A stretch of 64,000 bases of DNA from Candidatus Nomurabacteria bacterium (GCA_020632415.1 JACKFO010000002.1:119947-183946); one strand, 5' to 3'; numbered from the stretch's first letter, positions 23,892 through 50,022 are shown. Notes: generated by a model from the letters alone, not told the origin. Made by a program: numbers and translations.

Positions 23892-23900
23892 TGTTATAAT
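23892..23900 (+). promoter_or_regulatory. extended -10 promoter element (TGTTATAAT) for the plus-strand GT operon
   Basis: TGnTATAAT lies about 35 nt upstream of the ATG at 23935. The region is divergent to the minus-strand GT gene. Confidence 0.45.
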
Positions 23901-23934
23901 TTTATAGTATTTATAGGATAAAAACAAGCTTTTC

Positions 23935-25080: not shown

Positions 25081-25154
25081 GAATATGCAATTTTTATTTA
25101 TTTATGGTGCTTTAATTATCTTGTCTTTAATTTTTCAGCAAAATTTTTAATTTT

Positions 25155-26285: not shown

Positions 26286-26289
26286 TTAA

Positions 26290-28400: not shown

Positions 28401-28403
28401 TTT

Positions 28404-29075
28404 ATGGAAAATAATTCTACCCAAAATATTTATGAAAAACATCATCAAAACAGCAGAGAATCTGGCTTTAGCATTTTAGAAAAAGAAAGAGGAATTTTAC
28501 TTAAAGAAATTATTGGCGAAAATAAAAAAGTTTTAGATATTGGTTGTAGAGATGGCGCTTTGACTAAATATTTTTCTGAAAAAAATGATGTTACTGGAGT
28601 AGATATTGATAATTTGTCTTTAGCTAAGGCAGCAAAAAATTTAGGAATTAAAACTTCTTTTGTTGATTTAAACGGTGATTGGAGAGAGCTAAAAGAAGAA
28701 AAATTTGATTTTGTTGTTGCTGGTGAAATTTTGGAACATCTTTATCATCCGGAAAAAATTATTCAACAAGTTATAAAATATTTAGATCAAGGCGGCTTAT
28801 TTTTAGGTTCTGTTCCAAATGCTTTTAGTCTTAAAAATAGACTCAGATATTTAAAGGGATCAAAGAGATTTACGCCTCTTTCTGATCCAACTCACATCAA
28901 TCATTTTAGCTATAATGAATTAAAAAAGATATTTGAAAAATATTTTTTACAAGTGGAAATAATTGGTTTAGGTAGATATTCTTGGCTAGCAAAAAAATTT
29001 CCAAATTTTTTTGCTTTTGATTTATTTTTTAAAGTAAGTAGTTTTCAAAATGAAAAAAATATTAGTAGTAATTAA
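28404..29075 (+). CDS. class I SAM-dependent methyltransferase
   Basis: Motif I is VLDIGCRDGALT. The post-I region is FDFVVAGEILEHL. Confidence 0.8.
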   Translation: MENNSTQNIYEKHHQNSRESGFSILEKERGILLKEIIGENKKVLDIGCRDGALTKYFSEKNDVTGVDIDNLSLAKAAKNLGIKTSFVDLNGDWRELKEEKFDFVVAGEILEHLYHPEKIIQQVIKYLDQGGLFLGSVPNAFSLKNRLRYLKGSKRFTPLSDPTHINHFSYNELKKIFEKYFLQVEIIGLGRYSWLAKKFPNFFAFDLFFKVSSFQNEKNISSN

Positions 29076-30114
29076 TAGTTTGGGAGTTGGCGGAGCAGAA
29101 AGGATGGCAGTCAATCAAGTTAATGAGATGATTAGGCGCGGTTTTAAGGTTCGACTTTTGACTTTAAAATTAGAATCAGAAAAATCTTTTTTAAAGGACT
29201 GTTTAATTGAGCAAAAAAATTGGAAAATTATTAATTTTGGTAGTCTATTTAATTTTTTTAGTTGGCTAAAAGTATTTTTTTATCTTAAAAAAGAGCATCC
29301 AGATTTGGTGATTAGTCATTTGTGGTTTTCAAATTTAATTTCTAGAATTGTCTGTAAAATTTTAAATTTAAAAATATTATCTTTTGAGCAAAACGTCTAT
29401 GATTCAGTGAAGACTAAAAAAATGTTTTTTATTGATCGACTTTTGCAAGGATTGGCTTTTAAAATTGTTGCTGTTTCAGAGGTTGTAAAAAGATCATTGA
29501 TTAGTCATGGGATAAAAGAGGATAAAATAGTAGTTATTTATAATTCCGTAGATTTAGAGGCCTATCAAAATGTTGAGGTAGATCAAGAGATGTCAAAAGA
29601 TAAAAATTTTAAATTTTTATATGTTGGTAGGTTGATAAATCAAAAAGGTTTGGACACTTTAATTAAAGCTTTTGCAAAGACCAAGGGCGCAAATCTTTAT
29701 TTACTTGGTCAAGGTCAAGATCGTGAGCGGCTTGAAAAATTAGCTGAAGAAAAAGGCGTGAGAGATAGGGTATTTTTTTGGGGGGTAAGGGATAATGTTT
29801 CGAAAGTTATTGCAGCAGCCGACTCTTTTGTTTATCCTTCAAGACACGATGGTTTTAGCTTGGTTTTATTGGAGGCTTTAGCTTCAAAAAAGCCGGTAAT
29901 AGTTTCTGATTTTTTTTCGAATCTTGAAGTTGTGGAAGATGGAAAAAGCGGTTTAGTTTTTCCTGTTGACAATATCGAATCTTTGACTGAAAAGATGAAT
30001 TTGATTATGAATAATGAAAAAATAAGAATAGATTTATCATTTTTTGCTGGAGAGAGAGTGAAAGATTTTTCTATTACAAATCATATAAATAAAATCATTG
30101 AATATGCAAAATAA
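29050..30114 (+). CDS. glycosyltransferase family 4
   Basis: FVYPSRHDGFSLVLLEALASKKPVIVSD...VEDGKSGLVF. Confidence 0.85.
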   Translation: MKKILVVINSLGVGGAERMAVNQVNEMIRRGFKVRLLTLKLESEKSFLKDCLIEQKNWKIINFGSLFNFFSWLKVFFYLKKEHPDLVISHLWFSNLISRIVCKILNLKILSFEQNVYDSVKTKKMFFIDRLLQGLAFKIVAVSEVVKRSLISHGIKEDKIVVIYNSVDLEAYQNVEVDQEMSKDKNFKFLYVGRLINQKGLDTLIKAFAKTKGANLYLLGQGQDRERLEKLAEEKGVRDRVFFWGVRDNVSKVIAAADSFVYPSRHDGFSLVLLEALASKKPVIVSDFFSNLEVVEDGKSGLVFPVDNIESLTEKMNLIMNNEKIRIDLSFFAGERVKDFSITNHINKIIEYAK

Positions 30115-30880
30115 TAATTCTAATTCAAAAATAGAAGCTTATTTGAGCAAGAGATTTAAAAATTCTGATTCTTATGAATTAGATCATTTGCGAAGTGATT
30201 GGGAACATAAGGAAAAAAGCTCTTTTGGAGTGCTCAATGATTTTAAAAATAGAATAGGAAGTCCAAATGGAAAAAAAGTTTTGGACATTGGCTTTGGCAA
30301 TGGTATTATGACCAAAGTCTTTTTTTCCGAAGGGGCTATTATGAGCGGCATTGAGGTAGATGATTTTCTTTTTGAGATAGCCAAAGAATACTTGAATGAA
30401 CTAAGCATTGATGTTGATCTGAAACTTTACGATGGAAAAAAGTTTCCTTTTGACGATGATTATTTTGATTATATTTATAGTACAAGTGTTTTAGAGCACG
30501 TGGATGATTCAGAGCTTTTTTTATCAGAAGCAAGCAGAGTCTTGAAAAGTGGCGGTAAAATTTACTTAGCTTTTCCAAATAGATTTGCTTTGCGTGATAG
30601 TCATAGTGGAGTTTATTTTTTGGGTTATTTCCCTAGATTTATGTCTCAACTTATTTTGAAATTATTAAAAAAAGGGTCGTTAGAAGATTGGAATTTACAC
30701 TTTTTGAGTTATTTTTCAATATTAAAGATTATTAGAAAAAATAAATTGCCTTTAGAAATTAAGATGGAAACAAATTCAAAATATTTTTTTAGAAAGTTGG
30801 TTAAAAAATTTTTAGCAATTTTTAATATTCATTATGGAGCTTTGTTGTCTAGCATTGTTATTATTATAGAAAAAAAATAA
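30104..30880 (+). CDS. class I SAM-dependent methyltransferase
   Basis: VLDIGFGNGIMT and FDYIYSTSVLEHV are present. The ATG at 30104 is preferred over the TTG at 30098. Confidence 0.8.
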   Translation: MQNNNSNSKIEAYLSKRFKNSDSYELDHLRSDWEHKEKSSFGVLNDFKNRIGSPNGKKVLDIGFGNGIMTKVFFSEGAIMSGIEVDDFLFEIAKEYLNELSIDVDLKLYDGKKFPFDDDYFDYIYSTSVLEHVDDSELFLSEASRVLKSGGKIYLAFPNRFALRDSHSGVYFLGYFPRFMSQLILKLLKKGSLEDWNLHFLSYFSILKIIRKNKLPLEIKMETNSKYFFRKLVKKFLAIFNIHYGALLSSIVIIIEKK

Positions 30881-30881
30881 T

Positions 30882-32720
30882 ATGTTTTTAAAAACAGATT
30901 GGAGTGATTATTTGCATCAAATTAGAAAAAAAGAAATAGATATTATTTTTTCTTATTTTAAAAAAGATTTTTTTAACCATGGTCTTGAAATTGGCGCTGG
31001 AGATGGTTATCAAACACAGTTTCTTTTTACAAAATGCAAATCATTTATTTCTTCGGACTTGAACTTTGAAAGAATTAAAAAAGAAAACAAAAAAAATGAC
31101 GTTAAATATATAAAGTTAGATGCTGATAAAATGAGCGATTATTTTCCAGCTGATAAATTTGATTTTATTTTTTCTTCAAATGTCTTAGAGCATCTTTCTA
31201 ATGTAGATAACTTTTTGAAAGAAAATTATAGGATACTTTCTGACGATGGGATTTCTGTGCATATTGTGCCAAATAGATTTATGAAATTTTTTTATCTCTT
31301 ATTTTTTTATTTGCACATTTTTTCTTTAAGTGTTGATAGATTTTTTGGTTTATTCAGTGGAAAAAAGATATTTCGTGGTTCTGGTATTAATTTAGAAAAT
31401 AATATAAACTCAGTCAAAATAAAAGAAAAAAAGTTAGGGAAAATAAAAAAACTATTTTTACCACAAATACACGGAAATTATCACAGTCATGTCGAAGAGT
31501 GGAGAAGCTGGGGTCTTAAGAAATGGAGGAATAAATTTTTAGCCGCTGGATTTATCGTTGAGAAAGAAATGAAAGGACCTATTTTTTCTGGTTATGGATT
31601 CGGATTTAATGTTTTAAGGGCTATATTTGAAAAATTAGGAGTATCATCAGAGTATATCTATGTTTTGAGAAAAAAAGTCGATTATAAAATTAAGCCTAAA
31701 GAAATCGATGAATTAAGAGTTGCGATTATAACAGCTGTTAGTGGTGGAGGATATTTAACAAATACTGTAATAGACGGATTTTTGGATTTAAAAAATAGCG
31801 GAAAAAATATTAGTATTGGAATTCCGGATCATTACCCAGTAAAAATGTTTGATCAACATCTTTCTAGATTCAAAGAACAGGATTTTATTAATTTTTCTAA
31901 AACAGCTGATCTTATTTTTTGCGCATATACTGACGGTGGTTTGACTGATTATAAATTACTTAAAAAAATTGATTTATATAAAAATCTGATTGTTTTAGAT
32001 GGTTCTGAGACCAAGGGTACTGGACGTAGTAATTTTGAGGTTCAAAAAAAAATCATCAATCTCTCTTATGATAAATTTGGTGCAATTGATAACGATTTGT
32101 TAAAAAAATGCGCTCTATATTTTAGAAGGGAAAAACCTTATTTAAATAATATCATTCCCTTGCCTTATGGCATAGAAAGAAGGTATAAGGTTTACGATAA
32201 AAACTTTAAGAAAGACATAGACTTTGTTTGCATTTTTGGACAAGAGGATTTTTCGCCAATGAGAAAATATTGCCGTGAGATGTTAGAAGATTTTTGTAAA
32301 AAAAATAATCTTATTTGTGTGACAAAAAAAACCAAAGGATTTTCATTTGATTCGGGAAAAACTGTTGGTCGCGATGAGTTTTATGAGTTGCTTGCTCGCG
32401 CAAAGGTTGGGATTTCTGTTAGTGGCGGTGGTTATGATACCGCCAGGTTTTGGGAAACTTTGGCTAATAATTGTTTGCTTTTAACAGAGAAAATAGACAT
32501 TTTTAATCCAGAAGATAAAAAGCTTGATTATAAAAGAATTTGGGAATTTGGGAATTTATTTGATTTTCAATATCAGTTAGAAAAAATTAGTAGTTATCTG
32601 AAGAGTGAGTACAACGTAGAGTCTCTATCGGAAGAATACCAGCAAATATTGAACAAGCATTCTTCTAGAGCAAGGGTTGAAGAAATCTTAAGTGAAGTAA
32701 AAAAAAGAGGGATTTTATAA
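30882..32720 (+). CDS. fusion protein: N-terminal class I SAM methyltransferase plus C-terminal GT-B/CgeB-like putative glycosyltransferase domain
   Basis: The N-terminus has GLEIGAGDGYQT and FDFIFSSNVLEHL. The C-terminal ~350 aa have GT1-like ...SGGGYDTARFWETLANNCLLLTE... Confidence 0.6.
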   Translation: MFLKTDWSDYLHQIRKKEIDIIFSYFKKDFFNHGLEIGAGDGYQTQFLFTKCKSFISSDLNFERIKKENKKNDVKYIKLDADKMSDYFPADKFDFIFSSNVLEHLSNVDNFLKENYRILSDDGISVHIVPNRFMKFFYLLFFYLHIFSLSVDRFFGLFSGKKIFRGSGINLENNINSVKIKEKKLGKIKKLFLPQIHGNYHSHVEEWRSWGLKKWRNKFLAAGFIVEKEMKGPIFSGYGFGFNVLRAIFEKLGVSSEYIYVLRKKVDYKIKPKEIDELRVAIITAVSGGGYLTNTVIDGFLDLKNSGKNISIGIPDHYPVKMFDQHLSRFKEQDFINFSKTADLIFCAYTDGGLTDYKLLKKIDLYKNLIVLDGSETKGTGRSNFEVQKKIINLSYDKFGAIDNDLLKKCALYFRREKPYLNNIIPLPYGIERRYKVYDKNFKKDIDFVCIFGQEDFSPMRKYCREMLEDFCKKNNLICVTKKTKGFSFDSGKTVGRDEFYELLARAKVGISVSGGGYDTARFWETLANNCLLLTEKIDIFNPEDKKLDYKRIWEFGNLFDFQYQLEKISSYLKSEYNVESLSEEYQQILNKHSSRARVEEILSEVKKRGIL

Positions 32721-33977
32721 GTCTCTCTTTTTTAAGTTATAAGATAGTGTTAGAGAAAAAATATTACTGATCATTTTCCCTAAAATAGCGCCCCAAATAC
32801 CATAAAAATATATTAGGCCAATTGTTATCAAAATAGTAAATGCGGGATTGGCTATATTAAAAATAAATATTTTGTTTGAACGAGTCGCAAATAAAGATGT
32901 TATTGGTAAATTTCCAGCAAGATAAATAACAGCAGATAATATATAAATTTGAGAATAAACTATAGACTCTAAATATTGAGGAAAAAATACCTTAAAGATA
33001 AAAGGGGCTGCAAAAATATAAAGTAGTCCTATGGCCAGGGAAAAAATTAGTAATTGAATTGTTTTTTGAAAGATGTTTTTTGTTTGATTACCAGTACTTT
33101 CTTTTTCGGATAATTTTGGCAAGGCCATAGTTATGGCTGGTTTGAATAAGTTAATTATTCTTTCTGGTATATTTGCCGCAAAAGAATAAATAGCTAGAGC
33201 AGCAGCTCCTTGAAAGTAGAAGATGGCTAAACTTGGCACGCTGAATGCAACGAGAGGAAGGATGTTCGACAGGCTTAATTTTTTTCCATATTTTATCGCT
33301 TCATCGTCTCTGTTCTGGTTAAATTGGTATTTTTTTGTTAGTCTGATGTAAATAATAAGATTACTAAAGACTAATAGTAGAAAATTGATACTTATTAATA
33401 AGGTAATATTTTTAATGAAAACTACCCCAAGAATCATTCCTAGGTAGTATATAAAATTTATAAATTGATTATTAAGGAAAATATTTTTAAAATCTTTTTT
33501 CCCCTGTAGAAAAGCAACCCAGGTGTTTAAAGTGTTATTAAGAGGTATTAATAAACCAATTATTAAAATACCCAGAGAGATGCTTAATGTGTTATTTAAA
33601 AAATAGAAGTAGTATACAAATAGCAACAAAGAGAATAAAAACGGAATAAATAAAAATTTAATTTGTTCTCTTATCGCTTGTTTGAATACTTGGTCAGAAC
33701 CTTTGGCGACAGATTGAGTCACAGCTATGTTTATGCCAGTTAATGTGAGAGTTCCTATGATCGTGGATAGGGAAATAAGAAATTGATAGTTACCGTAATT
33801 TTCTTTACTTAAAAAATTTGCAAATAGTATTGATAAAATTAGAGCCAAAAGACTTGAGCCTAGGGTATTAAGATTTAACCAAAAACCACCTTTGCTTAAG
33901 TAAACCATGTCGGTTTTAGTGTATTTTTCACTCCAACGTAAAATTTGGTAGATTTTATTGCGTAATTTAGCCAACAT
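32715..33977 (-). CDS. Wzx-type oligosaccharide flippase (MOP / polysaccharide-biosynthesis family)
   Basis: It is 420 aa with about 12 TM helices. The N-terminus fits the polysacc_synt pattern, including ...ENYGNYQFLISL... An SD AGGAAG lies upstream. Confidence 0.75.
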   Translation of the reverse strand: MLAKLRNKIYQILRWSEKYTKTDMVYLSKGGFWLNLNTLGSSLLALILSILFANFLSKENYGNYQFLISLSTIIGTLTLTGINIAVTQSVAKGSDQVFKQAIREQIKFLFIPFLFSLLLFVYYFYFLNNTLSISLGILIIGLLIPLNNTLNTWVAFLQGKKDFKNIFLNNQFINFIYYLGMILGVVFIKNITLLISINFLLLVFSNLIIYIRLTKKYQFNQNRDDEAIKYGKKLSLSNILPLVAFSVPSLAIFYFQGAAALAIYSFAANIPERIINLFKPAITMALPKLSEKESTGNQTKNIFQKTIQLLIFSLAIGLLYIFAAPFIFKVFFPQYLESIVYSQIYILSAVIYLAGNLPITSLFATRSNKIFIFNIANPAFTILITIGLIYFYGIWGAILGKMISNIFSLTLSYNLKKRDL

Positions 33978-33978
33978 A

Positions 33979-35346
33979 TTATCTTCCTAAGCTTCTGTTA
34001 AAAATCGTATTGATGGTTTTTAAAATAATTGAGATGTCCAAAGCAATGCTTTGATTTTTTACATAAAATAAATCGTATTGAAGTTTTTCTTTAGCATCTT
34101 CAATAGAAGCTCCATAAGGAAAGTTGATCTGCGCCCAGCCAGTTAAGCCTGGTTTGATTAGGTGTCTTTCATTGTAGAAGGGGATTTCTTGCTTCAAAAT
34201 TTCTACAAATTCTGGTCTTTCTGGACGGGGACCGACAAAACTCATCTCACCTTTGATAATGTTCCAAAATTGAGGGATTTCATCAATTCTGGTTTTACGA
34301 ATAATTTTGCCAATTTTAGTAATTCGAGCATCTTTTTCTTTTGCCCATTGCGCGCCGGTATTTTTTTCAGCATCTTTTTTCATGGAACGGAATTTATAAG
34401 CATAGAATTCCTTACCACCCAAACCAACTCTTTTTTGTTTGTAAATCAGCGGGCCATTACTTTCTAGCTTGATGAGCAAGGCTAGAAATGGTAGGAAAAC
34501 TAAAGAGATCAAACCAAAAAGAATGGCAAAAAATAAATCATAAATTCTTTTAATAATTTGAAACCAATCATTATTTTTTTGGCTTAAATTTTCAAAAAAC
34601 CAGCTTCTTTCTAAATCTGTTACGGGAATTTTGCCAGTGATTTTTTCATAAAAATCTATTAAGTTGCTATAAGTAATCTTTAAGTCAATACTTTCAAATA
34701 AATAGCGGGCAACTTCTGGACTATATTTTGGATTGTTGACTACTACTACGGTATTGATTTTATATTTTTCAAGGTCTTTTTTTAAGTTTGCCAAATCTTT
34801 GGTACTAGGAATGATTTGAAATTTTTCAGGGATATTTAATGACTCCGGGTTAATAAATAATTTTAATTTATATCCCAAATGTGGTTGAGTGATTATTTCT
34901 TGGGCAAGGAGTAGCGACTCAGGGTTGATGCCAATGATTGCTAGATTATTAGATAGTCTGATGCTAGAAAGAAGGGAAAAGAATATTTTTCGCCAAATAA
35001 TCCAGAGAATTGCAAAGATTAAAATTAAGATGATCAAAACTTTTTGTGGTCTTAAGTTACTGAATCTTCCTAGGATCAAATAAAAGAAGGAAAAAGCCAG
35101 TAAAGTATTGACGATTAAATTATTGATTAGTTGTCCGTAAAATTTATAATCATTTTTTACTTTACGGATTTCGTATAGACCATTGATGAAAAAGACAATT
35201 AACCAAAGGGCAAAGACAATGCTAAAGGGCCAAAGGTGCTCTTGTAAGAGTTCCCAGCTAAAATATTGATAACGAATAAATAAGGTTATGACTAAACTGA
35301 AATAAAGTAGTATAATGTCAGTAAGCAAAAGGATTGTTTTTTTCAT
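33979..35346 (-). CDS. initiating polyprenyl-phosphate hexose-1-phosphate transferase (WbaP/PssY-type bacterial sugar transferase)
   Basis: It has N-terminal TM helices. The C-terminus PLIYKQKRVGLGGKEFYAYKFRSM...DEIPQFWNIIKGEMSFVGPRPERPEF is the conserved bacterial sugar transferase domain. Confidence 0.85.
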   Translation of the reverse strand: MKKTILLLTDIILLYFSLVITLFIRYQYFSWELLQEHLWPFSIVFALWLIVFFINGLYEIRKVKNDYKFYGQLINNLIVNTLLAFSFFYLILGRFSNLRPQKVLIILILIFAILWIIWRKIFFSLLSSIRLSNNLAIIGINPESLLLAQEIITQPHLGYKLKLFINPESLNIPEKFQIIPSTKDLANLKKDLEKYKINTVVVVNNPKYSPEVARYLFESIDLKITYSNLIDFYEKITGKIPVTDLERSWFFENLSQKNNDWFQIIKRIYDLFFAILFGLISLVFLPFLALLIKLESNGPLIYKQKRVGLGGKEFYAYKFRSMKKDAEKNTGAQWAKEKDARITKIGKIIRKTRIDEIPQFWNIIKGEMSFVGPRPERPEFVEILKQEIPFYNERHLIKPGLTGWAQINFPYGASIEDAKEKLQYDLFYVKNQSIALDISIILKTINTIFNRSLGR

Positions 35347-35416
35347 AATATTTTTAAGTATTTTCTATATTATAATAAAAATCATATTTTTTGTCAAATA
35401 AAATTAATTTCAAATT

Positions 35417-37516
35417 ATGTCAAAATTAAGTAAATATCTGTGGTGGAGTACTGTTGTTTTTAGTTTAGCAATTCTATTTGCGCCGCTAATTATAAATGGT
35501 AATTTTTATTTTCCTTTTATTGTGCCACGAAATCTGTTTTTCCGAATGCTCGTGGAACTTTCTTTTTTTAGTTATTTAATTTTAATCATTTTAGATCAGA
35601 ATTTTCGACCAAAATTTAATAAAGCTTATTTAATTTTTTTATTTTTTATTTTAAGTTTAACGATTTCTAGTTTGCTAGCTGGAAATTTTGGCTTTTCTTT
35701 TTGGAGTAATTTTGAGAGAATGGATGGTTTGTTAAATTGGTATCATTTGGCAGCCTATGTTTTTGTGTTGTTAGGAATTTTTGGTCACGATCAAAAGAAG
35801 ATTTTTTTATTCCTCAAGATTTCTTTAATTCCAGCCTTCCTAGTAGCTTTGATTGCTGTTGGTCAAAGATTGAATTTAAGTTTTGTCCTAGAGTCTTCTG
35901 GTGGCACCAGACTTGCTTCTACTTTGGGAAATGCTGCCTATGTTGGCTCGTATATGTTTTTGCATATTATCATTGCCCTTTATTTATTTTTTAAAGAAAA
36001 AGCCAAGAAATATTGGCAGTTTATTTATGCGTTTTTGATTATTTTATTTACTTGGACTTTGATTGGTACTTCTACTCGAGGTTCATTTTTGGGTTTAATT
36101 TTATTTATTTTTTTGTTAGGACTTTTCTTTTTGTGGTTCAAAAGAAAGCAAAAAAATCTTCAGTATTGGCTAGTTTTATCTCTAGCGGCTATTTCTATTA
36201 TTTTCGTTGTTGCTCTTTTTTTACAAAAAGATAGCGCTTGGGTTAAAGGCGTTCCTTTATTTAGTAAGATAGCTAATATTTCTTTGACCGACACAACTAC
36301 TCAGTCTCGTTTAGTCATTTGGCGCAATAGCTTGAGTGGTTTTCAGGGAAAGCCAATTTTTGGTTGGGGAGAAGAAAATTTTACCCAAGTTTTTAATAAA
36401 TATTTTCCAATTGAAATATTTCACGATACTGGCTCAGAAGTTTGGTTTGATCGTCCACATAATATCTTGGTCCAACATTTGATTCAAGGCGGAATCGTGG
36501 GTTTGGGTCTATATTTGGGAATTTTTATCTACCTGATCATTTTGCTTTATCGTCGACAAAAAAAAGATCAAGATTGGCTAAGCTTTTCTTTTTGGTCAGC
36601 GTTTTTGTTAAGCTTTTTGTTTCAAGATTTATTTATTTTTGACAATGTCAATGTCAATGTAGTCTTTTATTTTATTCTGTCATTTTTGTTTAGTTTGGAT
36701 GCCAAAGTTTATTTTGCTAAATATTCTTGGAAAAAATATCAGAAAATTTTTGTTTTATTGAGTTTTTGTTTATTTTTATTAAGTCTTAATTTTTTTATTA
36801 TTCGCCCTTATTATGCTAATACTTTATTAGTTCAAACCTTGCAGGCAGTTCCGGTGATTAATAATGATCAGGACTTAGAAATCGTTTTAAAAAATTGGGA
36901 AAAATCCTTTAAACTTACTAGACAAGGCGATAAAGAAAAGGTGCAAAATTTGTATCGTTTATCTCTAACTTTTGCTCAAAATCAAAATTTAAGCGTTGAA
37001 GCAAGATCGAATTTTATTTTGGCTACTGAAAATTATTTTGAAATTTTAAAAAATAGATATCCACAAGACGTTAGGTCAAATTTATTTTTATCAAATTTTT
37101 ATCAAAGTTTATCTAGTTTCAAGCCAGAGTACATTGAAAAAAATATTAGTTTATTAAATCATTTACAAGAACTCGCTCCAAATCGACCAGATATTTTATT
37201 GAACTTAACTACAGCTTACCTGATGTCCGGAAAAATAGAAGAAGCTCAGATTTCAGCCGATCATTTGAGGGACTTAGCTCCATGGGCGAAAGCAGTTTAT
37301 TGGAATAGTTTCAAAGTAGATACTAGCCTTGGAGATTTTGAAAAAATAAAAAAAGACCTAGATAAAATTGTGGAAATTAATCAGAGTAGTTCGAAATTAA
37401 ATTTTACGGAGCAAGAGTTAGGTCAAATTAATAGCTTTTTGGCTTATGTTCAAGAAAACGATAATCAAGCGTTGGAAGATTTATTGTTAAAGTATTTGTC
37501 ATTAAAAAATGAATAA
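35417..37516 (+). CDS. Wzy_C-domain (O-antigen ligase / O-oligosaccharyltransferase / polymerase-like) membrane protein with a C-terminal TPR-like domain
   Basis: It is polytopic, with RLVIWRNSL...PIFGWGEENF...FDRPHNILVQHLIQGGIVGL (Wzy_C HNxxL..E.G motif). The C-terminal ~220 aa are soluble and helical-repeat-like. Confidence 0.75.
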   Translation: MSKLSKYLWWSTVVFSLAILFAPLIINGNFYFPFIVPRNLFFRMLVELSFFSYLILIILDQNFRPKFNKAYLIFLFFILSLTISSLLAGNFGFSFWSNFERMDGLLNWYHLAAYVFVLLGIFGHDQKKIFLFLKISLIPAFLVALIAVGQRLNLSFVLESSGGTRLASTLGNAAYVGSYMFLHIIIALYLFFKEKAKKYWQFIYAFLIILFTWTLIGTSTRGSFLGLILFIFLLGLFFLWFKRKQKNLQYWLVLSLAAISIIFVVALFLQKDSAWVKGVPLFSKIANISLTDTTTQSRLVIWRNSLSGFQGKPIFGWGEENFTQVFNKYFPIEIFHDTGSEVWFDRPHNILVQHLIQGGIVGLGLYLGIFIYLIILLYRRQKKDQDWLSFSFWSAFLLSFLFQDLFIFDNVNVNVVFYFILSFLFSLDAKVYFAKYSWKKYQKIFVLLSFCLFLLSLNFFIIRPYYANTLLVQTLQAVPVINNDQDLEIVLKNWEKSFKLTRQGDKEKVQNLYRLSLTFAQNQNLSVEARSNFILATENYFEILKNRYPQDVRSNLFLSNFYQSLSSFKPEYIEKNISLLNHLQELAPNRPDILLNLTTAYLMSGKIEEAQISADHLRDLAPWAKAVYWNSFKVDTSLGDFEKIKKDLDKIVEINQSSSKLNFTEQELGQINSFLAYVQENDNQALEDLLLKYLSLKNE

Positions 37517-39377
37517 ACTACAAAAAATTTTACAATCTCTTTTGGTTTTGATTTTATTTACACCCTTGGTTTTAGATTTGCATTTTTACCAACCTTACAT
37601 TAGTGCTAAATATTTTTACTTTATTTTATTGCTTATTTTGGCCCTGCCTTTTGTTTTTGCTTTGTTAAAAAATAAAAAAATTATTTGGCAGAGTAATTTA
37701 GTAAGGGTAGTTTTTGGGTTTTTAGCTTTTTTGCTTTCTAGCCTTTTTTTAAGCATCGATCCTTTAAAAAGTTTTTTTGGTGATTGGCAGCGTTTTGATG
37801 GTTTGCTTTATTTTCTTTTCTTTTTTATTTTCTTTTTGGTCTTAATTTTAGTTTTTGAACAGAAAAAAGATTGGCTTCATTTTTTGCGGGTTAATCAGCT
37901 CGTGGTTCTAGCGACTCTACTTTGGGCTTATGGCCAATATTTTGCTCTAGGTTTTTTTGCTGATGATCAAGCGGGAAGAGTTTTTGCTTTGATTGGTAAT
38001 GCCAATTTTTTAGCGCACTATTTGTTGTTAGCGTTATTTTTGAGTTTATTTTTGGTATATTTTGATCAAAAATTTAAAATTTATCATCTTTTATTAAGCC
38101 TTTTGATTTTTCCTGTTATTTTAATGACGCAATCAAGGGCCGCTTTTCTAAGTTTGGTCTTAGTCTTTTTGATTTTGGCGATTGTGGCAATTATTAAATT
38201 TTGGCAAAAATCCAAAAAAACTAGTTTGGGCTTGATAGTCTTATTATTTTTGTTAGCACTATTTTCGAATCAGATTTTGAGCCATCGTTTTACTAAATAT
38301 TCTTGGCAAGATACAACCATTGAGACTAGATTGGTTGCTTGGCAAGCAGGATTGATCGGCTGGCAAGACAAGCCTTTATTTGGTTGGGGTAGGAACAATT
38401 TTAATTTAGTTTTTAATAAATATTTTGATTTAAAGATTTACAAAGGCGCCGGTACTCGAATGTGGTTTGATAAGGCTCATAATCAGTACCTAGATTATTT
38501 GGTAGAGCAGGGAATTTTGGGTTTGGTATTTTATCTAATATTTTTACTAATACCTTTTAGCTATTTTCAAAAAATTAAGAAAAAACATGGTTTAGCAGCA
38601 AGCATCTTTTTATTTTCTGGCTTAGTAGCAAATATCATTTTCTTATTTTTTAATTTTGATACTTTAAATTCTTATTTATTATATTTTGTTTATTTGGCCT
38701 TGATTTATTATTTGAGTTTTGAAAAAAGCGTAGAACAAAAAGAATTAAAGCAAGATAAATATTTGTTTGTTTTTGGCCTAGTTTTATTGTTTTTTTCTTT
38801 TTGTTATATTTTATTTCCGCAAATTCAAGGAAATTTAGCCTTAAAAAAGATTTTTCTCAGTCAACAGAATAATTTGAGCCTAAAAGATTGGTCTGAACAA
38901 GCAGAGATCGTTGCTCAAAAAACTCCTGAATATCAAGAAGACTTGAGTTTTGTTTTGGCAGAAAGTTTAGAAAAATCATCTTGGGAAATTAATGATCAAA
39001 TTCAAGCTCTGCAGACTTTGAATTATTATGGCAATCAAGCTGCTCAACAACACATTTTGGATGCCAGGTTGCATTATTTAATTGCCAATACTTTTTTACG
39101 TTGGGGTGCAATTTCTTCTGATCTTGATAAATTAGAGAAAGCAAAAAGTTATTATCAAGAGATTTTACCACGACTAACTAATCAAAAACGGCCAGAATTA
39201 GTCTATAATTTAGCTAGTGCTAATTATAATTTATCCTTATTTTTAACAGAGGAATCTGAAAAAAATCAACTCAAAAAAGAGAGTCTATCTGCTTTAGAGG
39301 ATAATTTTAAACGTTTTCCAAAAATTAAAGAAGCCAAAGATAAGTTAGAATATTTTCAATATTTATTTGAACAATAA
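37509..39377 (+). CDS. second Wzy_C-domain membrane protein with a C-terminal TPR-like domain (paralog of the upstream gene)
   Basis: RLVAWQAGL...PLFGWGRNNF...FDKAHNQYLDYLVEQGILGL. It has the same architecture as the upstream gene and overlaps it by 8 nt. Confidence 0.75.
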   Translation: MNKLQKILQSLLVLILFTPLVLDLHFYQPYISAKYFYFILLLILALPFVFALLKNKKIIWQSNLVRVVFGFLAFLLSSLFLSIDPLKSFFGDWQRFDGLLYFLFFFIFFLVLILVFEQKKDWLHFLRVNQLVVLATLLWAYGQYFALGFFADDQAGRVFALIGNANFLAHYLLLALFLSLFLVYFDQKFKIYHLLLSLLIFPVILMTQSRAAFLSLVLVFLILAIVAIIKFWQKSKKTSLGLIVLLFLLALFSNQILSHRFTKYSWQDTTIETRLVAWQAGLIGWQDKPLFGWGRNNFNLVFNKYFDLKIYKGAGTRMWFDKAHNQYLDYLVEQGILGLVFYLIFLLIPFSYFQKIKKKHGLAASIFLFSGLVANIIFLFFNFDTLNSYLLYFVYLALIYYLSFEKSVEQKELKQDKYLFVFGLVLLFFSFCYILFPQIQGNLALKKIFLSQQNNLSLKDWSEQAEIVAQKTPEYQEDLSFVLAESLEKSSWEINDQIQALQTLNYYGNQAAQQHILDARLHYLIANTFLRWGAISSDLDKLEKAKSYYQEILPRLTNQKRPELVYNLASANYNLSLFLTEESEKNQLKKESLSALEDNFKRFPKIKEAKDKLEYFQYLFEQ

Positions 39378-39412
39378 CATCTTTGTTTCACCAGCTAAAA
39401 TATGTTATAATA

Positions 39413-39438
39413 AAAGAGTTATTTAAGACTCTTTTTTG
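39413..39438 (+). terminator. stem-loop plus T-run after the glycan locus (terminator or 5' UTR hairpin of the chemosensory operon)
   Basis: AAGAGT tatttaag ACTCTT TTTTTG. A TGTTATAAT-like element sits immediately upstream at 39403-39411, so the role is ambiguous. Confidence 0.45.
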
Positions 39439-39481
39439 TTTTAAATTCGGATAACAAAAATAAAAATACCATTTTCGTTTT

Positions 39482-40621
39482 ATGCGTCTTTCTGAGACCA
39501 AAATATATTTTAAATTTATCGGTTGGTTTTTGCTAGTCGCTATTTTGCCTTTATTTTTATTATTTTTTGCCTTATTTAGACTTCAGCCAGATAGCTTTAT
39601 TTTTCAAACTACTTTTTTAAATAATGTTCTATTTAGCATTTTCTCCACTTCTGCTCTAGTTTTGACTTTAGCTCTGATTGCTGCTAGGCATTTTTCTTAT
39701 TTGATTACTAAGCCGGTTAAAGTTTCTATTGATGATTTAGAAAAAGTAATTGGCACTTTAAAAAAATCGATTGACAATTTAGCCGAAAGTAATAAGCATA
39801 ACAAGCAAATTGCCTCTTTGCTATTTTCTAGCACTAAAGATCAACAAAAAGGTTTAAATACCGGGGATAAAGCAGTGGGAGAAATTGTTCAATCTTTATC
39901 TTTGATTAATCAAAATATTAACCGAACCCAAAAAAATACTTCGCAAATCAAGGGTTTGGCCAATGAAGGAGAGTCCAAAGCTCAGCTGGCTTTGAGTAGT
40001 TTAGTGGCCATTAAACATCTTTCTACTGAAAACCAAAAATTAAATCAAGCTTTAGCGAGTTACGCGGGGCAAGTTTCCTCAATTGCTGAAAGAGTTGATC
40101 AAATGGCCGAGGCGGTGCGTTATTTAAGCCTCAATGCCTCAATAGAGGCAGCGAAATCAGAGGTTTCTCTAGAATTCGAAGCTTTAGTTCATCAAGTTAG
40201 GCAGATTAATTCCATCAGCCAAGAGGCTGCTTTAGGCATTAAAAAATTTGCTACTAGCATGCAGCAGCAAATTAAAAATTCAGAAAATGCTTCCCAGTAT
40301 GAATTAAAAGAAGCAGATAAAAATATTGGCATTGTTGGCCAAACTATCCAATTTTTGGCTAAAATTACGAAAGATAGTACTCAAATTAGTAAAAATATCG
40401 ACATTATTTGTTCTGAATCAGGAGAAACTAAACAAGCAGCTGATCAAGTTACCGAAGTTATTAAAAACCTGGGAAACAATAGTAAGAATTTAGTTAAAGA
40501 AGCTCAAAATGTTAATCACTTAGTTGAAAAACAAAGTAACAATTTAAGAGTTTTGCGTCGCTCTTTTAACATTTTGAGCGACACAGTGGCTAATTTAGCC
40601 GAAATAGTAGAAAAAAATTAG
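39482..40621 (+). CDS. methyl-accepting chemotaxis protein (PilJ-like; two N-terminal TM helices, minimal sensor loop)
   Basis: The MCP signalling domain is ...VRYLSLNASIEAAKSEVSLEFEALVHQVRQINSISQEAA... Confidence 0.8.
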   Translation: MRLSETKIYFKFIGWFLLVAILPLFLLFFALFRLQPDSFIFQTTFLNNVLFSIFSTSALVLTLALIAARHFSYLITKPVKVSIDDLEKVIGTLKKSIDNLAESNKHNKQIASLLFSSTKDQQKGLNTGDKAVGEIVQSLSLINQNINRTQKNTSQIKGLANEGESKAQLALSSLVAIKHLSTENQKLNQALASYAGQVSSIAERVDQMAEAVRYLSLNASIEAAKSEVSLEFEALVHQVRQINSISQEAALGIKKFATSMQQQIKNSENASQYELKEADKNIGIVGQTIQFLAKITKDSTQISKNIDIICSESGETKQAADQVTEVIKNLGNNSKNLVKEAQNVNHLVEKQSNNLRVLRRSFNILSDTVANLAEIVEKN

Positions 40622-41038
40622 ATGAATAAAACTAAACAAAAATTTATTTTGTTTGATCTAGCAGAGAATAAATATGCTCTAGAAATTTCTGATACTTATC
40701 GTATTTTTGAAGTACAAAGTTTAAGTCCTGTTCCTGGTTCTGATCAGAGAATTGCTGGCCTAAGTTATTTTGACGGTCATTTAGTGACAATTTTAGCCAC
40801 AGATAAAATTTTGAGTTTAAAAAATCAAAATCAAGAAATAAACCAGGCTTTACTAGTCAAAAATGATAATCATTATTATGCATATTTAGTTGATCAAGTA
40901 GCGGATGTAGTTGATGCTTTTTTGCAAAAAAGCAAGACTAAGCTTAATGGTTTAAATAATTTTATTTTAATCAATAAACAAAAAATTTTTGTCCTGGAAA
41001 CGGATTTTTTATTAAAAGAAATATTCGATAATGAATAG
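40622..41038 (+). CDS. CheW-like coupling protein (PilI-like)
   Basis: It is a 138-aa single CheW domain, FILFDLAENKYALEISDTYRIFEV. Confidence 0.75.
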   Translation: MNKTKQKFILFDLAENKYALEISDTYRIFEVQSLSPVPGSDQRIAGLSYFDGHLVTILATDKILSLKNQNQEINQALLVKNDNHYYAYLVDQVADVVDAFLQKSKTKLNGLNNFILINKQKIFVLETDFLLKEIFDNE

Positions 41039-42596
41039 CGAAAAGTATAAAGATTTTTACTTAGAAACAAGCCGTGATCAATTAAGAAAATTGTCTGATC
41101 TTTTTTTGGCTTGGGAGAAGAAAAGTACTGATCCTTATCTTTTGGAAGACATTTTAAGTCTTTTGCACTCAATGAAAGGTGCGGCGGTGACAATGGATTA
41201 TCAAAACACCGGCAAAGCTTTGCATCTTGCCGAAGATGTTTTTTATGCAATTTTGCATAAAGACTTGGAACTTAGTTCACTGATCATTGAAACTTTGTTT
41301 AGATTTTTAGAAAGTTTAGAAAATAATTTTGATTCTTTAGCAAAAAAAGGAAAAGAGTCTTCTTTTCAAGCTGTTTTTAATAATTTGCAAAAAATTGTTA
41401 AAAATAAAGCAAGTAAAAAACAAAGCAAAAAGAAAATTTCTTCAGAAACGATAATTAATTTAAATCACTCCCGTTCTTTTTTTAGAACACCTTTAGAGTT
41501 GGTGATTCCAACTTATCGCTTGGATAAAATTCAGAGCATCGTTGATAATCTATCAATTGCCAAAATAAACATCAATAGCAATATCAAAAATAGCGCTAGC
41601 GATAATTTGTTAAAATCTTGTGCTAATATCGATAAGATTGTTTCAGATTTGCGTCGAGAAATTGAAGAAATTAGACTTTTGCCGGTAGCACAGATATTTT
41701 CACCTCTACCTCGTTTAGTTAGACAGCTTGCTAAAGACGAGGAGAAAAAAGTCGATTTGATCATTGAGGATAATAATTTGTCTTTAGATAAATCTATTTT
41801 GGATGATTTGATGGATATTGTAATTCAGCTTTTGCGTAACGCTGTTGTTCATGGCATCGATAAAAAACAAGACAATGGTCAGATTATCGTTAGAGTTGAA
41901 TTAGTAGATGGTCGAGTGAGATTGATGGTTGCAGATAACGGTCACGGTATTGATTGGCAGGAAGTTGTAAAATTATCCGTTAGAAAGAAAATTATTAGCC
42001 AAGCGGAGGCTAAAAAATTAAACATTTTGGAAATTAAACAGCTTTTGTTTAGTAATCGTTTTTCCTCGCAAAAAGTAGTTACTTTAAATAGTGGTCGTGG
42101 CGTCGGTTTAAGTTTGGTTAAAAAAAGAGTTGATGATTTGAATGGAAATATCAGCTTGGAAAGTTCCAAGGCACATGGCGCACGTTTTATAATAGACTTG
42201 CCACTTTATACCTCTGTTTTTAGAGCTCTTGTTTTTCAACTAGCTGATTTTTATTTAGCAATTCCTTTGGTTAATATTCAAAAGATTATTCGTTTGCCAA
42301 AAATAGAAACTTTTTCTAATCAAAAAAGTTTTGTTTACAAGAAGATAAATTATCGACTTTTGTCTCTGAAAAAGATAATCGGAGCAAATCTTTCTTTGTC
42401 GACGCAGAATTTGTTATTGATCAAATTTAATGATCAGGAAAAATTGTTGGCTGTTCCGCAAAATTTAAAAGAAGAGGAAGTGGTGATGAAAAGGCAGCCA
42501 AAAATTTTGAAAGACAATCCGATTGTTTCTTCAGCCGCAGTAGCCAGTGATGGTCGGGTGATCTTGATTTTAAACATGCACAGTTTAATGCAATAA
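41031..42596 (+). CDS. CheA/ChpA-like histidine kinase (Hpt, dimerisation, HATPase_c and CheW domains)
   Basis: The Hpt is LHSMKGAAVTMDYQ. The dimerisation/kinase core is LPVAQIFSPLPRLVRQLAKDEEKKVDLIIEDNN...LLRNAVVHGI...DNGHGID...GRGVGLSLVKKRVDDLNGNISLES. It ends in a CheW-like domain. Confidence 0.85.
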   Translation: MNSEKYKDFYLETSRDQLRKLSDLFLAWEKKSTDPYLLEDILSLLHSMKGAAVTMDYQNTGKALHLAEDVFYAILHKDLELSSLIIETLFRFLESLENNFDSLAKKGKESSFQAVFNNLQKIVKNKASKKQSKKKISSETIINLNHSRSFFRTPLELVIPTYRLDKIQSIVDNLSIAKININSNIKNSASDNLLKSCANIDKIVSDLRREIEEIRLLPVAQIFSPLPRLVRQLAKDEEKKVDLIIEDNNLSLDKSILDDLMDIVIQLLRNAVVHGIDKKQDNGQIIVRVELVDGRVRLMVADNGHGIDWQEVVKLSVRKKIISQAEAKKLNILEIKQLLFSNRFSSQKVVTLNSGRGVGLSLVKKRVDDLNGNISLESSKAHGARFIIDLPLYTSVFRALVFQLADFYLAIPLVNIQKIIRLPKIETFSNQKSFVYKKINYRLLSLKKIIGANLSLSTQNLLLIKFNDQEKLLAVPQNLKEEEVVMKRQPKILKDNPIVSSAAVASDGRVILILNMHSLMQ

Positions 42597-42597
42597 A

Positions 42598-43260
42598 ATG
42601 AGTGAACAGAAAGTAAAAATTTTATTTGTTGATGATGATAGTTTTTTGAGAAAGGTTTATGATTCAGAATTAACAGAAAATAATTATGATGTAGCTCTGG
42701 CTGTTGATGGTCAAGATGGTTTAGATAAGGCGCGTGATGTTGATCCTGATTTGATCATTTTGGATATGGTAATGCCCAAAAAAAATGGTTTTGAAGTTTT
42801 GACAGAATTGCAATCTGATCCAGAAACAGCTCATATTCCAGTGATTATTTTATCAAATTTGGGTCAGGCAGCCGATCGGCAAAAGGGTCTGGATCTTGGC
42901 GCGGTTGATTATTTGGTAAAAGATAGCACGACTCTAGGAGTAATTATGTCTAGAATTGATAATATTTTACATTCACATACTAGCAGTAAAGAAGTAAGGA
43001 AAAAGAGTCATGAGATGGCGATCAAAGAAGCCAGTAAAATTCCTGAACCAGAAAAAATAGACGAAGCAAAAACTTCTGCTAATATTTTGACTAATGTTGC
43101 AAAACAGTTAGTCAAAAAATCAGAAAGAAAATCTACGGATGATAGACAGATAGAAAGTAGTAGCGGTGGCGCTGGTTTCCAATTTTGTCCAGAATGTGGT
43201 TCAAAAATAAAGATAAATTATAAATTTTGTCCAAAGTGTGGGTATAAATTAGAAAAATAA
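42598..43260 (+). CDS. CheY-like response regulator fused to a C-terminal zinc ribbon
   Basis: The REC domain is ILFVDDDSFLRK...DLIILDMVMPKKNGFEVL...IPVIILSN. The C-terminus is FQFCPECGSKIKINYKFCPKCGYKL. Confidence 0.8.
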   Translation: MSEQKVKILFVDDDSFLRKVYDSELTENNYDVALAVDGQDGLDKARDVDPDLIILDMVMPKKNGFEVLTELQSDPETAHIPVIILSNLGQAADRQKGLDLGAVDYLVKDSTTLGVIMSRIDNILHSHTSSKEVRKKSHEMAIKEASKIPEPEKIDEAKTSANILTNVAKQLVKKSERKSTDDRQIESSSGGAGFQFCPECGSKIKINYKFCPKCGYKLEK

Positions 43261-43264: not shown

Positions 43265-44950
43265 ATGGCGATAATTTCTGACAACAAAATTCACAATATC
43301 ATTAGTAAAGTAGGTTTGGTACCACTTGATGTTTTGGATACAAGTTTAAAAACTGCTCACGAGAAAAAAGAAGATTTTGTTACTTTTTTGATTAAGCAAA
43401 ATTTGATTAAATCAGAGGAAGTCGGTCAATTAATTGCCAACAATCTTCATGTTCGTTTTGTTAATTTAATCAAAGAGCAAATTAAGCTAGAAATTTTAAA
43501 AATTATTCCAGAGATTGTTGCTCGTAAACAAAAAATTATTGCTTTTCGTCATGATGAAGAGGGTTTAAAAGTAGCAATGAACAATCCTTTTGATTACAAC
43601 ATGGTCAAAATGTTAGAAAAAAAGGTGGGAGACAAAGTAATCCCTTATTATGCTACTGATTACGATATTAAAAATGCTTTTGGTTTGTATCGTAAGGCTG
43701 TTCAGCAAGAATATGCAACACAAATTCAGCAGCACGCGGTACGTGCTCAAGGTTCGCAAGTTGAAGATGTTTCGGTGGTTAGTTTGGTTGATGATTTGTT
43801 TAACTACGCTTACACTAATCATGCTTCGGATATTCATATTGAGCCAGCAGAAGAAGAAATTAAAATTAGATTTAGAATTGATGGTATTTTGCACGATGTT
43901 TTGACTCTACCAAAAAATATTTTGAGTTTGATCGTTGCTCGTTTAAAAATTTTAGCCAAGTTAAGAACTGATGAAACTCGCGCTGCTCAAGACGGAAAAA
44001 TAAACACCAAAGTAGAAGGTGAAAAAGTAGATATCAGAGTATCAATTGTTCCGATCACTCAAGGTGAAAAAGTCGTTATGCGTTTATTGTCTTCCAAAGG
44101 TCAGCAGTTTAGCTTGGAAGATTTAGGGATGAATAGTCGTGATTTAGGTTTGGTCTCAAGAGGAATTAAAAAACCTTATGGCATGATCTTAGTCACTGGT
44201 CCAACTGGTTCTGGTAAGACAACGACCCTTTATGCTTTGATTAAAATTATTAATAGCCGAGATGTTAATATTTGTACAATTGAAGATCCAGTAGAATATG
44301 ATTTAGAAGGAATTAATCAAATTCAAGTTAATCCAAAAACCAATTTGACTTTTGCCGAAGGTTTACGTTCTCTGCTAAGACAAGATCCAGATGTGATGAT
44401 GGTCGGAGAAATTCGAGATGAAGAGACAGCGAGTATTGCTGTTAATTCTGCAATGACTGGTCATTTGGTTTTATCTACTTTGCATACCAATGATTCAGCT
44501 ACTGCTTTACCACGTTTGTTGGACATGAAGATCGAGCCGTTTTTAGCAGCGTCAACAGTGAATGTGATCATTGCTCAGCGTTTGGTTCGACATATTTGTT
44601 TGAAATGTATTGTTAGTTATACTTTAACTGATCAAGAAATTGAAGATTTGAAAAAAATGGTGGATATCGATAAATTTTTGGATGTCGAAAAATTAAAAGA
44701 TATTCGTTTGTATCATGGTAAGGGCTGTGATAAATGTAACAACACTGGCTATACTGGTCGAATGGGCATTTTTGAAGTTTTGGAAGTGGAGGAGACGATT
44801 AGACAGTTGATTGCTGAGCGTGCTGATTCTGATCGAATTAAAGAGGCAGCTCAAAAATTAGGAATGACCACGATGCTTGAAGACGGTTTTGAAAAAGTGG
44901 TATCTGGTCAAACAACTTTAGATGAAATATTAAGAGTAACTCGTCAATAA
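43265..44950 (+). CDS. pilB: type IV pilus assembly ATPase PilB/GspE
   Basis: It has a T2SSE_N-like N-terminus and a Walker A GPTGSGKTTTLYA. The tetracysteine motif is CLKC...CDKC. Confidence 0.9.
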   Translation: MAIISDNKIHNIISKVGLVPLDVLDTSLKTAHEKKEDFVTFLIKQNLIKSEEVGQLIANNLHVRFVNLIKEQIKLEILKIIPEIVARKQKIIAFRHDEEGLKVAMNNPFDYNMVKMLEKKVGDKVIPYYATDYDIKNAFGLYRKAVQQEYATQIQQHAVRAQGSQVEDVSVVSLVDDLFNYAYTNHASDIHIEPAEEEIKIRFRIDGILHDVLTLPKNILSLIVARLKILAKLRTDETRAAQDGKINTKVEGEKVDIRVSIVPITQGEKVVMRLLSSKGQQFSLEDLGMNSRDLGLVSRGIKKPYGMILVTGPTGSGKTTTLYALIKIINSRDVNICTIEDPVEYDLEGINQIQVNPKTNLTFAEGLRSLLRQDPDVMMVGEIRDEETASIAVNSAMTGHLVLSTLHTNDSATALPRLLDMKIEPFLAASTVNVIIAQRLVRHICLKCIVSYTLTDQEIEDLKKMVDIDKFLDVEKLKDIRLYHGKGCDKCNNTGYTGRMGIFEVLEVEETIRQLIAERADSDRIKEAAQKLGMTTMLEDGFEKVVSGQTTLDEILRVTRQ

Positions 44951-44954
44951 AAAT

Positions 44955-48729: not shown

Positions 48730-48732
48730 AGA

Positions 48733-50019: not shown

Positions 50020-50022
50020 AAT

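Follow-up and report, generated by a model that had tools for sequence, protein, structure and literature searches.

Two overlapping genes in a 64,000-nucleotide stretch of Candidatus Nomurabacteria DNA (GCA_020632415.1 JACKFO010000002.1:119947-183946; hereafter the window, 64 kb of an 842-kb contig) encode a pair of polytopic membrane proteins, each ending in a soluble repeat domain. The two open reading frames, ORF A (35417..37516, + strand, 699 aa) and ORF B (37509..39377, + strand, 622 aa), are diverged paralogues within a Patescibacteria-wide Wzy_C subfamily of the WaaL/PglL type, with a GT-C_B fold. We propose that both act as extracytoplasmic en-bloc glycan transferases, probably as protein O-oligosaccharyltransferases (O-OTases), with diverged tetratricopeptide repeat (TPR) domains that select different acceptors, a proposal to which we give about equal chances of being right or wrong.

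The tandem gene pair

ORF A is a Wzy_C/WaaL-like enzyme with 13 transmembrane (TM) helices and a C-terminal TPR domain, and it belongs to a group termed here the A clade. ORF B has the same type of 13-TM enzyme core, followed by a shorter, degenerate TPR-like domain, and falls in the long-branch B clade. A sequence-only reading of this DNA had described two consecutive proteins of about 620-700 aa that overlap by 8 nt. The overlap is exact, running from the ATG of ORF B at 37509 to the end of the ORF A stop codon TAA at 37516 (ATGAATAA; 37509..37516, + strand), and the same 8-nt overlap is present in the related locus L140 and between the two copies of locus L005.

The common polytopic Wzy_C core described in that reading is likewise borne out. 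Pfam Wzy_C (PF04932) matches residues 207-367 of ORF A (E 1.1e-21, 77.7 bits) and residues 196-343 of ORF B (E 6.1e-22, 78.5 bits), against a cut-off of 31.7 bits, and the core motif that had been quoted occurs as RLVIWRNSLSGFQGKPIFGWGEENF...FDRPHNILVQHLIQGGIVGL in ORF A and as RLVAWQAGLIGWQDKPLFGWGRNNF...FDKAHNQYLDYLVEQGILGL in ORF B. When the two proteins are aligned with each other, a comparison proposed at the outset, they match end to end at 27% identity (E 2e-35), and the paralogy is therefore real. Databases annotate both as 'O-antigen ligase family protein', and the features of the Wzy_C/GT-C_B superfamily, comprising a PF04932 match, a WaaL-like polytopic fold and an Arg/Arg/His triad, are all present in A and B.

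Predicted structure, topology and catalytic residues

The AlphaFold2 (AF2) models of the two proteins share a common architecture (ORF A: predicted local distance difference test (pLDDT) score 94.1, predicted template modelling (pTM) score 0.91; ORF B: pLDDT 95.1, pTM 0.93). In each, a WaaL-like core of 13 TM helices, with a large loop between TM9 and TM10, is followed by an all-helical repeat domain at the C-terminus. The sole sequence relative of A and B in the Protein Data Bank (PDB) is the WaaL O-antigen ligase 7tpg, and WaaL is also the closest solved structure.

Topology was assigned from the AF2 helix boundaries together with counts of Lys and Arg (K/R) charges in the loops. Short loops rich in K/R occur only after even-numbered TMs in both proteins, that is, on the predicted inner side. 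In ORF A, 11 such residues lie inside versus two outside, and the outside pair consists of the invariant R101 and R165. The 13 TMs and this positive-inside charge pattern would place the C-terminal domain outside: in both proteins the N-terminus is predicted to be inside, and the catalytic loop and C-terminal domain to be extracytoplasmic. Small standalone TPR proteins encoded beside relatives of A and B have an N-terminal TM anchor, which also puts their TPR domains outside.

The extracytoplasmic TM9-TM10 loop of ORF A spans residues 270-349 (36224..36463, + strand) and carries invariant R298, W302, P313, G316, G318, W343, D345, H348 and N349, while the catalytic loop of ORF B, predicted to lie on the same side, spans residues 257-325 (38277..38483, + strand) and carries R274, W278, P289, G292, G294, D321, H324 and N325. 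The family-invariant columns of ORF A are R101, R165, G171, N172, R221, R298, W302, G316, G318, W343, D345, H348 and N349, and all are kept in ORF B as R95, R157, G163, N164, R210, R274, W278, G292, G294, W319, D321, H324 and N325. Within these sets, R221/R298/H348 of A and R210/R274/H324 of B align with positions 191/265/313 of the 7tpg WaaL in a HMMER alignment, from which the WaaL positions were counted by hand. The triad columns are invariant in the family alignments, except that of R210 in B, which is nearly so (at least 90%). A functionally important triad is formed by R215/R288/H338 in E. coli WaaL, equivalent to R224/R298/H349 in N. meningitidis PglL (PMC3643930), and the triads of A and B correspond to these residues.

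The sequence-only reading had named two observations that would speak against substrate recognition by the repeat domain, namely cytoplasmic C-terminal repeats and loss of the conserved Arg/His in one copy. Neither is seen. The repeats are predicted to be extracytoplasmic in both proteins, each with 13 TMs and K/R-rich loops on the inside only, and no triad residue has been lost from either copy.

External repeat domains and their divergence

The extracytoplasmic TPR domain of ORF A (residues 466-699; 36812..37513, + strand) is 234 aa long and contains 11 helices, with near-invariant E507, R553 (in a DVR motif) and P588. The corresponding repeat domain of ORF B (residues 442-622; 38832..39374, + strand) is 181 aa long and contains eight helices, with DAR at 518 and RPE at 561. 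TPR sequence support is weak in ORF A (TPR_19, E 0.011), and ORF B has no TPR Pfam match. The soluble TPR-like C-terminal domain that had been ascribed to both proteins thus needs to be qualified: the AF2 model of ORF A has a true TPR fold, while the domain of ORF B is only TPR-like.

Between A and B, identity is highest in the loop (0.42) and lowest in the C-terminal domains (0.14), which at 14% identity are yet detectably homologous. Within either clade, identity is about 0.70 in the loop, about 0.5 in the TM regions and 0.37-0.39 in the C-terminal domain. The same within-clade conservation pattern in A and B suggests that both copies are under constraint; both look functional, with their divergence concentrated in the external repeat domain. 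Judged from these alignments, such a concentration fits acceptor specialisation.

Gene order on the pilus side

ORF A falls in a clearly delimited orthologue group with 39-72% identity, and ORF B in a smaller, faster-evolving group with 43-55% identity. More distant relatives (about 30% identity) are proteins of 700-830 aa from the candidate phyla radiation (CPR) with strong canonical TPR Pfam matches. In two alignments of relatives, Wzy_C is matched in 63/63 and 48/48 proteins and TPR_19 in 44/63 and 31/48. A scan of species-representative genomes identified more than 555 loci that encode relatives, nearly all of them in metagenome-assembled genomes of Patescibacteria.

In the window, ORF A is divergent from the gene for an initiating phosphoglycosyltransferase (PGT; Bac_transf, WbaP-like; 33979..35346, - strand). 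Beyond this gene lie a Wzx-type flippase (Polysacc_synt by Pfam; 32715..33977, - strand) and a variable glycan island (22628..32720) with six GT4 glycosyltransferases (GTs), two methyltransferases and one methyltransferase-GT fusion. The fusion (30882..32720, 612 aa) combines an N-terminal S-adenosylmethionine (SAM) methyltransferase with a C-terminal Glyco_trans_1_2 domain. GC content dips to 0.27-0.31 over the island and ORFs A and B (24000..40000), versus 0.33-0.38 in the flanks. On the other side of the gene pair are a chemosensory module (39482..43260, + strand), made up of a methyl-accepting chemotaxis protein (MCP), CheW, CheA and a response regulator with a C-terminal zinc ribbon, and the type IV pilus machinery (43265..53567, + strand), with PilB, PilC, three N_methyl minor pilins (one with LamG), a LamG protein and PilM. 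Two tandem major-pilin-like genes follow (53664..54149 and 54170..54664, + strand; 161 and 164 aa, 56% identical), whose products are candidate acceptors.

This arrangement is conserved. The order PGT(-), A (B), MCP, CheW, CheA, response regulator, PilB, PilC and pilins is kept in at least 10 contigs, and every A- or B-orthologue locus examined has variable glycan genes, Wzx(-) and PGT(-), then the Wzy_C gene or genes, chemosensory genes and pilus genes. The glycan genes differ at each locus (sulfotransferase with 3'-phosphoadenosine-5'-phosphosulfate synthesis, carbamoyltransferase, asparagine synthase, radical SAM, GT2 and others); L140 is no exception, although it is the closest relative, its A orthologue being 72% identical. 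Island gene content varies across related loci as it does in O-antigen or capsule loci.

An A-clade gene always comes first after the divergent PGT, and the B clade is found only at this position. Both types occur together at the pilus side in the window, L001/L002, L003, two contigs of 80015 and 318467 bases and probably L140. Two A-type copies are present at the pilus side of L005/L008; they are sisters in the tree, which points to an independent duplication. A stands alone at the pilus side in L006, L007 and L009, and B in L004. Pilus linkage as a family-wide property was ruled out, since it is seen in 4/51 wider-family loci when the context of 80 representative-genome loci is considered, and the linkage is a trait of the A/B clade alone. 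In 24/62 wider-family loci, a divergent PGT or Wzx is located no more than 3 kb upstream, a count by single-sequence phmmer that underestimates the true number. Tandem arrays of family genes recur (L016, L059, L075).

The variable pilus-side enzyme content (A+B, A+A', A or B) argues against an obligate pair of one polymerase and one ligase, a division of labour that the sequence-only reading had offered as its first option. Under this division, one paralogue would be of the Wzy type and join flipped repeat units, and the other, a ligase or OTase, would transfer the polymer to its final acceptor. As the glycan island has no other Wzy-like polytopic gene, any polymerisation would have to be carried out by A or B; coupled expression is suggested by the gene overlap; some polymerases also fall under Pfam Wzy_C; and L089 pairs a Wzy_C protein of 505 aa that lacks the C-terminal domain with a TPR-type member. 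However, either type occurs alone elsewhere, A and B retain one and the same Arg/Asp/His set, as is typical of ligases and OTases, and neither has lost the extracytoplasmic repeat domain. Furthermore, Wzy polymerases work with a Wzz/PCP (polysaccharide co-polymerase) chain-length regulator and a separate ligase or LCP enzyme, whereas none of the ORFs scanned along the window has a Wzz, GNVR or LCP domain. We consider the division unlikely, and it is disfavoured as an obligate pairing. The L089 pair (7954-9471 for the 505-aa protein, 0.5 kb 5' of the 715-aa TPR-type member at 10001-12148) is of a different kind and might be a true polymerase/transferase couple.

Candidate transcription signals lie on either side of the gene pair. 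The 70-nt divergent spacer common to ORF A and the PGT gene contains, upstream of the latter, a promoter-like site with the perfect sigma-70 consensus TTGACA-17-TATAAT (35369..35397, - strand). The gap between B and the MCP gene contains an AT-rich hairpin (AAAAGAGT/ACTCTTTT; 39412..39442, + strand; -8.3 kcal/mol, z -2.8) followed by a T-run, a possible terminator, on the basis of which A and B may form their own bicistron. A promoter/terminator scan reported no terminator after B, its GC-pair rule excluding this hairpin, which has fewer than three G-C pairs. An extended -10-like TGtTATAAT stands directly 5' of the hairpin (39403..39442 for the two elements).

The surface-protein side of the island

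The opposite end of the glycan island is bounded by the gene for a large secreted Ser/Thr-rich surface protein, which is a further candidate acceptor (18789..22553, + strand; a 1254-aa ORF with its likely start at ATG 18828). The protein carries a signal peptide, consists of 24% Ser+Thr and has neither Cys nor a Pfam match. The genes for an extracytoplasmic function (ECF) sigma factor and a DUF5667 protein (16528..18474, + strand) are conserved 5' of it, and a PDZ protein is also encoded upstream, giving a frame of PDZ, ECF sigma, DUF5667 and surface protein across 14681..22553. A metagenome scan with a surface-protein alignment found this frame to be widely conserved (the window, L088 and L092-L108), with surface proteins of about 1100-1350 aa. 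The surface protein may be S-layer-like and under ECF-sigma control.

Family genes are repeatedly encoded next to this protein. In L059, L075 and L017, family genes are immediately preceded by a homologue of the 1254-aa protein. A set of 17 loci combines a full-length surface protein with no less than 2.5 kb of downstream sequence, counting the near-duplicates L091/L092 and L110/L111 (identical gene lengths); in 15/17, one to three family genes start no more than 1.5 kb after the surface protein, with one copy in seven loci, two in six, three in two and none in two. Genes for standalone TPR proteins of ~200 aa, anchored by a single N-terminal TM, are interspersed among the Wzy_C-TPR genes in several loci (L088 9385-9996, L075 7056-7643, L091-L093, L098 and L105). 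A single contig that covers both ends of an island reads surface protein, standalone TPR protein, Wzy_C-TPR (P0142), GT4(-), glycan island, Wzx(-), PGT(-), A-type gene and pilus genes.

The window itself has no family copy at the surface-protein side and two at the pilus side. These counts are compatible with B replacing a missing surface-protein-side enzyme, as two genomes have one copy on the left and one on the right, versus none and two in the window. The idea of B as a relocated surface-protein-side enzyme is nevertheless put forward as a hypothesis only. Two results weigh against relocation: neighbour-joining trees place B on a long branch outside every surface-protein-side clade, and P0141 and P0138, the other best outgroup matches of B, are found in housekeeping gene contexts.

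Two loci show further variation on this side. In L059, two IS200-like (Y1_Tnp) genes (9149-9853 and 14314-15009) flank the tandem family pair that follows the surface-protein homologue, which hints at mobility of such pairs. L124 carries four tandem surface-protein paralogues (4910-14673), with no family gene in the next 5.6 kb.

Comparison with known glycan transferases

The WaaL of Cupriavidus metallidurans (7TPG/7TPJ) is an enzyme of about 400-413 aa, the 7tpg chain measuring 403-413 aa, without a C-terminal domain, and its acceptor is lipid A-core. With a 13th TM and an external repeat domain of 180-234 aa, A and B are not typical WaaL enzymes. CPR bacteria are generally held to lack lipopolysaccharide (LPS) and an outer membrane, and the canonical WaaL acceptor should therefore be missing; no LPS genes were found among the ORFs scanned in the window.

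Within the group formed by PglL, PglS, TfpO (PilO) and TfpM, the large periplasmic C-terminal domain of PglL, TfpO and PglS recurs as an architecture in A and B. A genomic link between such enzymes and pilins also has a precedent, since 21/31 pglL homologues adjoin pilin genes (PMC3643930). In contrast to PglL-type enzymes, the C-terminal domain of A and B is TPR, and the host is a CPR bacterium, not a Gram-negative one. A polytopic lipid-donor glycosyltransferase joined to a periplasmic or lumenal TPR domain and acting on protein Ser/Thr is also represented by TfpW, the pilin arabinosyltransferase of P. aeruginosa, and by eukaryotic TMTC1-4. However, these are members of another GT-C branch (ArnT/PMT-like, with a DDX motif) and not of Wzy_C, and their likeness to A and B is architectural only.

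The closest functional analogues of A and B would be WsfB of Paenibacillus alvei and WsaA/WsaB of Geobacillus stearothermophilus, likened here by described architecture and gene layout and not by sequence. WsfB is a Wzy_C enzyme with a C-terminal TPR domain, as in A (TPR fold) and B (TPR-like), while WsaB has a small TPR protein, WsaA, encoded just upstream, resembling the TM-anchored TPR proteins beside CPR relatives. These systems of S-layer O-glycosylation use WbaP-type initiation, and the S-layer gene can adjoin the cluster (PMC2943079); the OTase role of WsfB and WsaB is still described as predicted in a 2010 review. Both they and the A/B system belong to bacteria without an outer membrane and have a WbaP-type PGT. 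In the window, the PGT adjoins A and the surface-protein gene bounds the same island, S-layer formation by that protein being putative. Related CPR loci share the layout of the WsfB/WsaB systems, with surface protein, TPR protein, Wzy_C-TPR gene and GT genes. There are also differences: the WsfB/WsaB clusters rely on a Wzm/Wzt ABC transporter for export, while the A/B locus has a Wzx-type flippase, and those clusters contain one transferase, whereas CPR loci have arrays of one to three, with another set at the far end of the island.

These comparisons bear on an alternative in which both enzymes are ligases for a non-protein acceptor, such as a glycolipid or lipoglycan anchor or the cell wall, acting as WaaL analogues in a monoderm with a TPR domain that binds glycan or a scaffold. 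Such a role would agree with WaaL as the closest solved structure, with the database annotation, with the many family members that have no surface-protein or pilus neighbour, and with the TPR domains known in polysaccharide-export scaffolds. We regard it as quite unlikely, given that the extra TM and large external C-terminal domain match O-OTases and not the roughly 400-aa WaaL, that the family repeatedly lies right after a secreted surface-protein gene (15/17 loci), and that the parallel with WsaA/WsaB and WsfB is close.

Proposed function of A and B

We infer a protein acceptor from the O-OTase-like architecture, the Gram-positive S-layer parallel, the existence of TPR-bearing glycosyltransferases such as TfpW, and the generally accepted lack of LPS in CPR bacteria. 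In the proposed pathway, glycan synthesis on a polyprenyl phosphate carrier would be initiated by the WbaP-like PGT and continued by the GT4 glycosyltransferases and methyltransferases that the island encodes, and the Wzx-like flippase would move the lipid-linked glycan outward. A and B would then transfer the glycan en bloc from the lipid carrier to acceptors that are most likely secreted proteins, with the diverged TPR domains picking the acceptor. Candidates, for either enzyme, are the downstream type IV pilins and the upstream Ser/Thr-rich surface protein. Two O-OTases with distinct acceptors and TPR-based recognition, the second option of the sequence-only reading, fit the genomic context best, given the adjacency of family genes to surface proteins and the position of the A clade before the pilus operon; the acceptors are candidates, and a match between enzymes and pilin paralogues finds no support.

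Several points weigh against this proposal. Everything in it beyond fold, topology and synteny is inferential. Neither A nor B matches PglL_A (PF15864) or Wzy_C_2 at E <= 0.1, and both families are absent from the 25 most frequent families listed for the 63 and 48 relatives. The TfpO gene lies immediately 3' of the major pilin gene; A and B are instead 5' of the whole chemosensory-pilus array, with the major pilin genes 14 kb from B. The clade-specific pilus linkage (4/51) could be due in part to gene order that small syntenic CPR genomes have inherited, and the hairpin and T-run after B suggest that A and B may be transcribed apart from the pilus genes. TPR domains also occur in polysaccharide-export scaffolds, and hence are no proof of a protein acceptor. 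An assignment of one enzyme to each pilin paralogue was rejected, as the number of pilin genes does not follow that of the enzymes: among the best 120 matches, by crude matching of PilA1 homologues, a contig of 844504 bases has three PilA-like proteins and one pilus-side enzyme, and the 80015-base contig has one listed and A+B.

Specialisation for the donor, with the same acceptors but different lipid-linked glycans or chain lengths (compare TfpO and TfpM), or an A/B hetero-oligomer, is improbable and the least probable of the alternatives. In its favour, the many island GTs and methyltransferases might produce several glycans, the window encodes a further initiating transferase, of the WecA/MraY type, OTase classes are known to vary in the glycan length that they accept, and the 8-nt overlap, kept in L140 and L005, is typical of co-expressed partners. 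Against it, divergence is greatest in the TPR domain and not in the membrane and loop regions expected to bind the lipid-linked donor, and a hetero-complex is dispensable, as single-copy loci demonstrate.

The O-OTase proposal can be extended to a more specific form, which we consider doubtful. In this form, one hypervariable island would serve two acceptor-specialised OTases, A for the type IV pilus and B as the counterpart of the surface-protein-side enzymes, with the external TPR domain picking the acceptor, and the locus would form the core of the first CPR protein O-glycosylation system to be recognised. If this is true, pili and cell coat would share one strain-specific glycan, which would affect host attachment and phage evasion.

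Implications for CPR surface glycosylation

CPR bacteria, or Patescibacteria, account for a substantial part of bacterial diversity. They live attached to other microbes, a lifestyle to which pili and surface layers are central. In a study of Saccharibacteria pili, pilin glycosylation was only predicted, the process was called unexplored and no enzyme was named. In the literature searched, neither O-antigen-ligase-like enzymes nor machinery for protein glycosylation is described for CPR bacteria. The present analysis delimits a CPR-wide Wzy_C-TPR subfamily and a conserved superlocus in which these enzymes are flanked by a variable glycan island and by the genes for surface proteins of two classes. 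The strain-variable sugar chain is most likely attached by A and B to surface proteins such as pili. The conserved superlocus makes CPR surface glycosylation directly testable and provides concrete enzyme and acceptor candidates. Additionally, should acceptor choice depend on the TPR domain, the naturally occurring arrays of one to three paralogues would provide a panel for studying, and possibly engineering, the acceptor specificity of O-OTases.

Further features of the window

A WecA/MraY-type polyprenyl-phosphate sugar-phosphate transferase (Glycos_transf_4; 12417..13511) is encoded after RuvX and is a second possible initiator outside the island. Searches of the window for tRNA genes and Rfam families found none. 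The chemosensory module lies directly 5' of pilB, and its MCP has two N-terminal TM segments. This module is kept in related CPR loci, with MCP and CheW missing on the 80015-base contig.

The pilus region at 46666..51792 encodes very large minor pilins and pilus-associated proteins (687, 428 and 589 aa), two with LamG/ConA-like lectin domains and many Cys residues. These large lectin-domain proteins may be adhesins. The tandem major pilins share a common N-terminal helix and a common C-terminal ...ESDYATASIYVQR, and their Ser/Thr-rich central loops differ.

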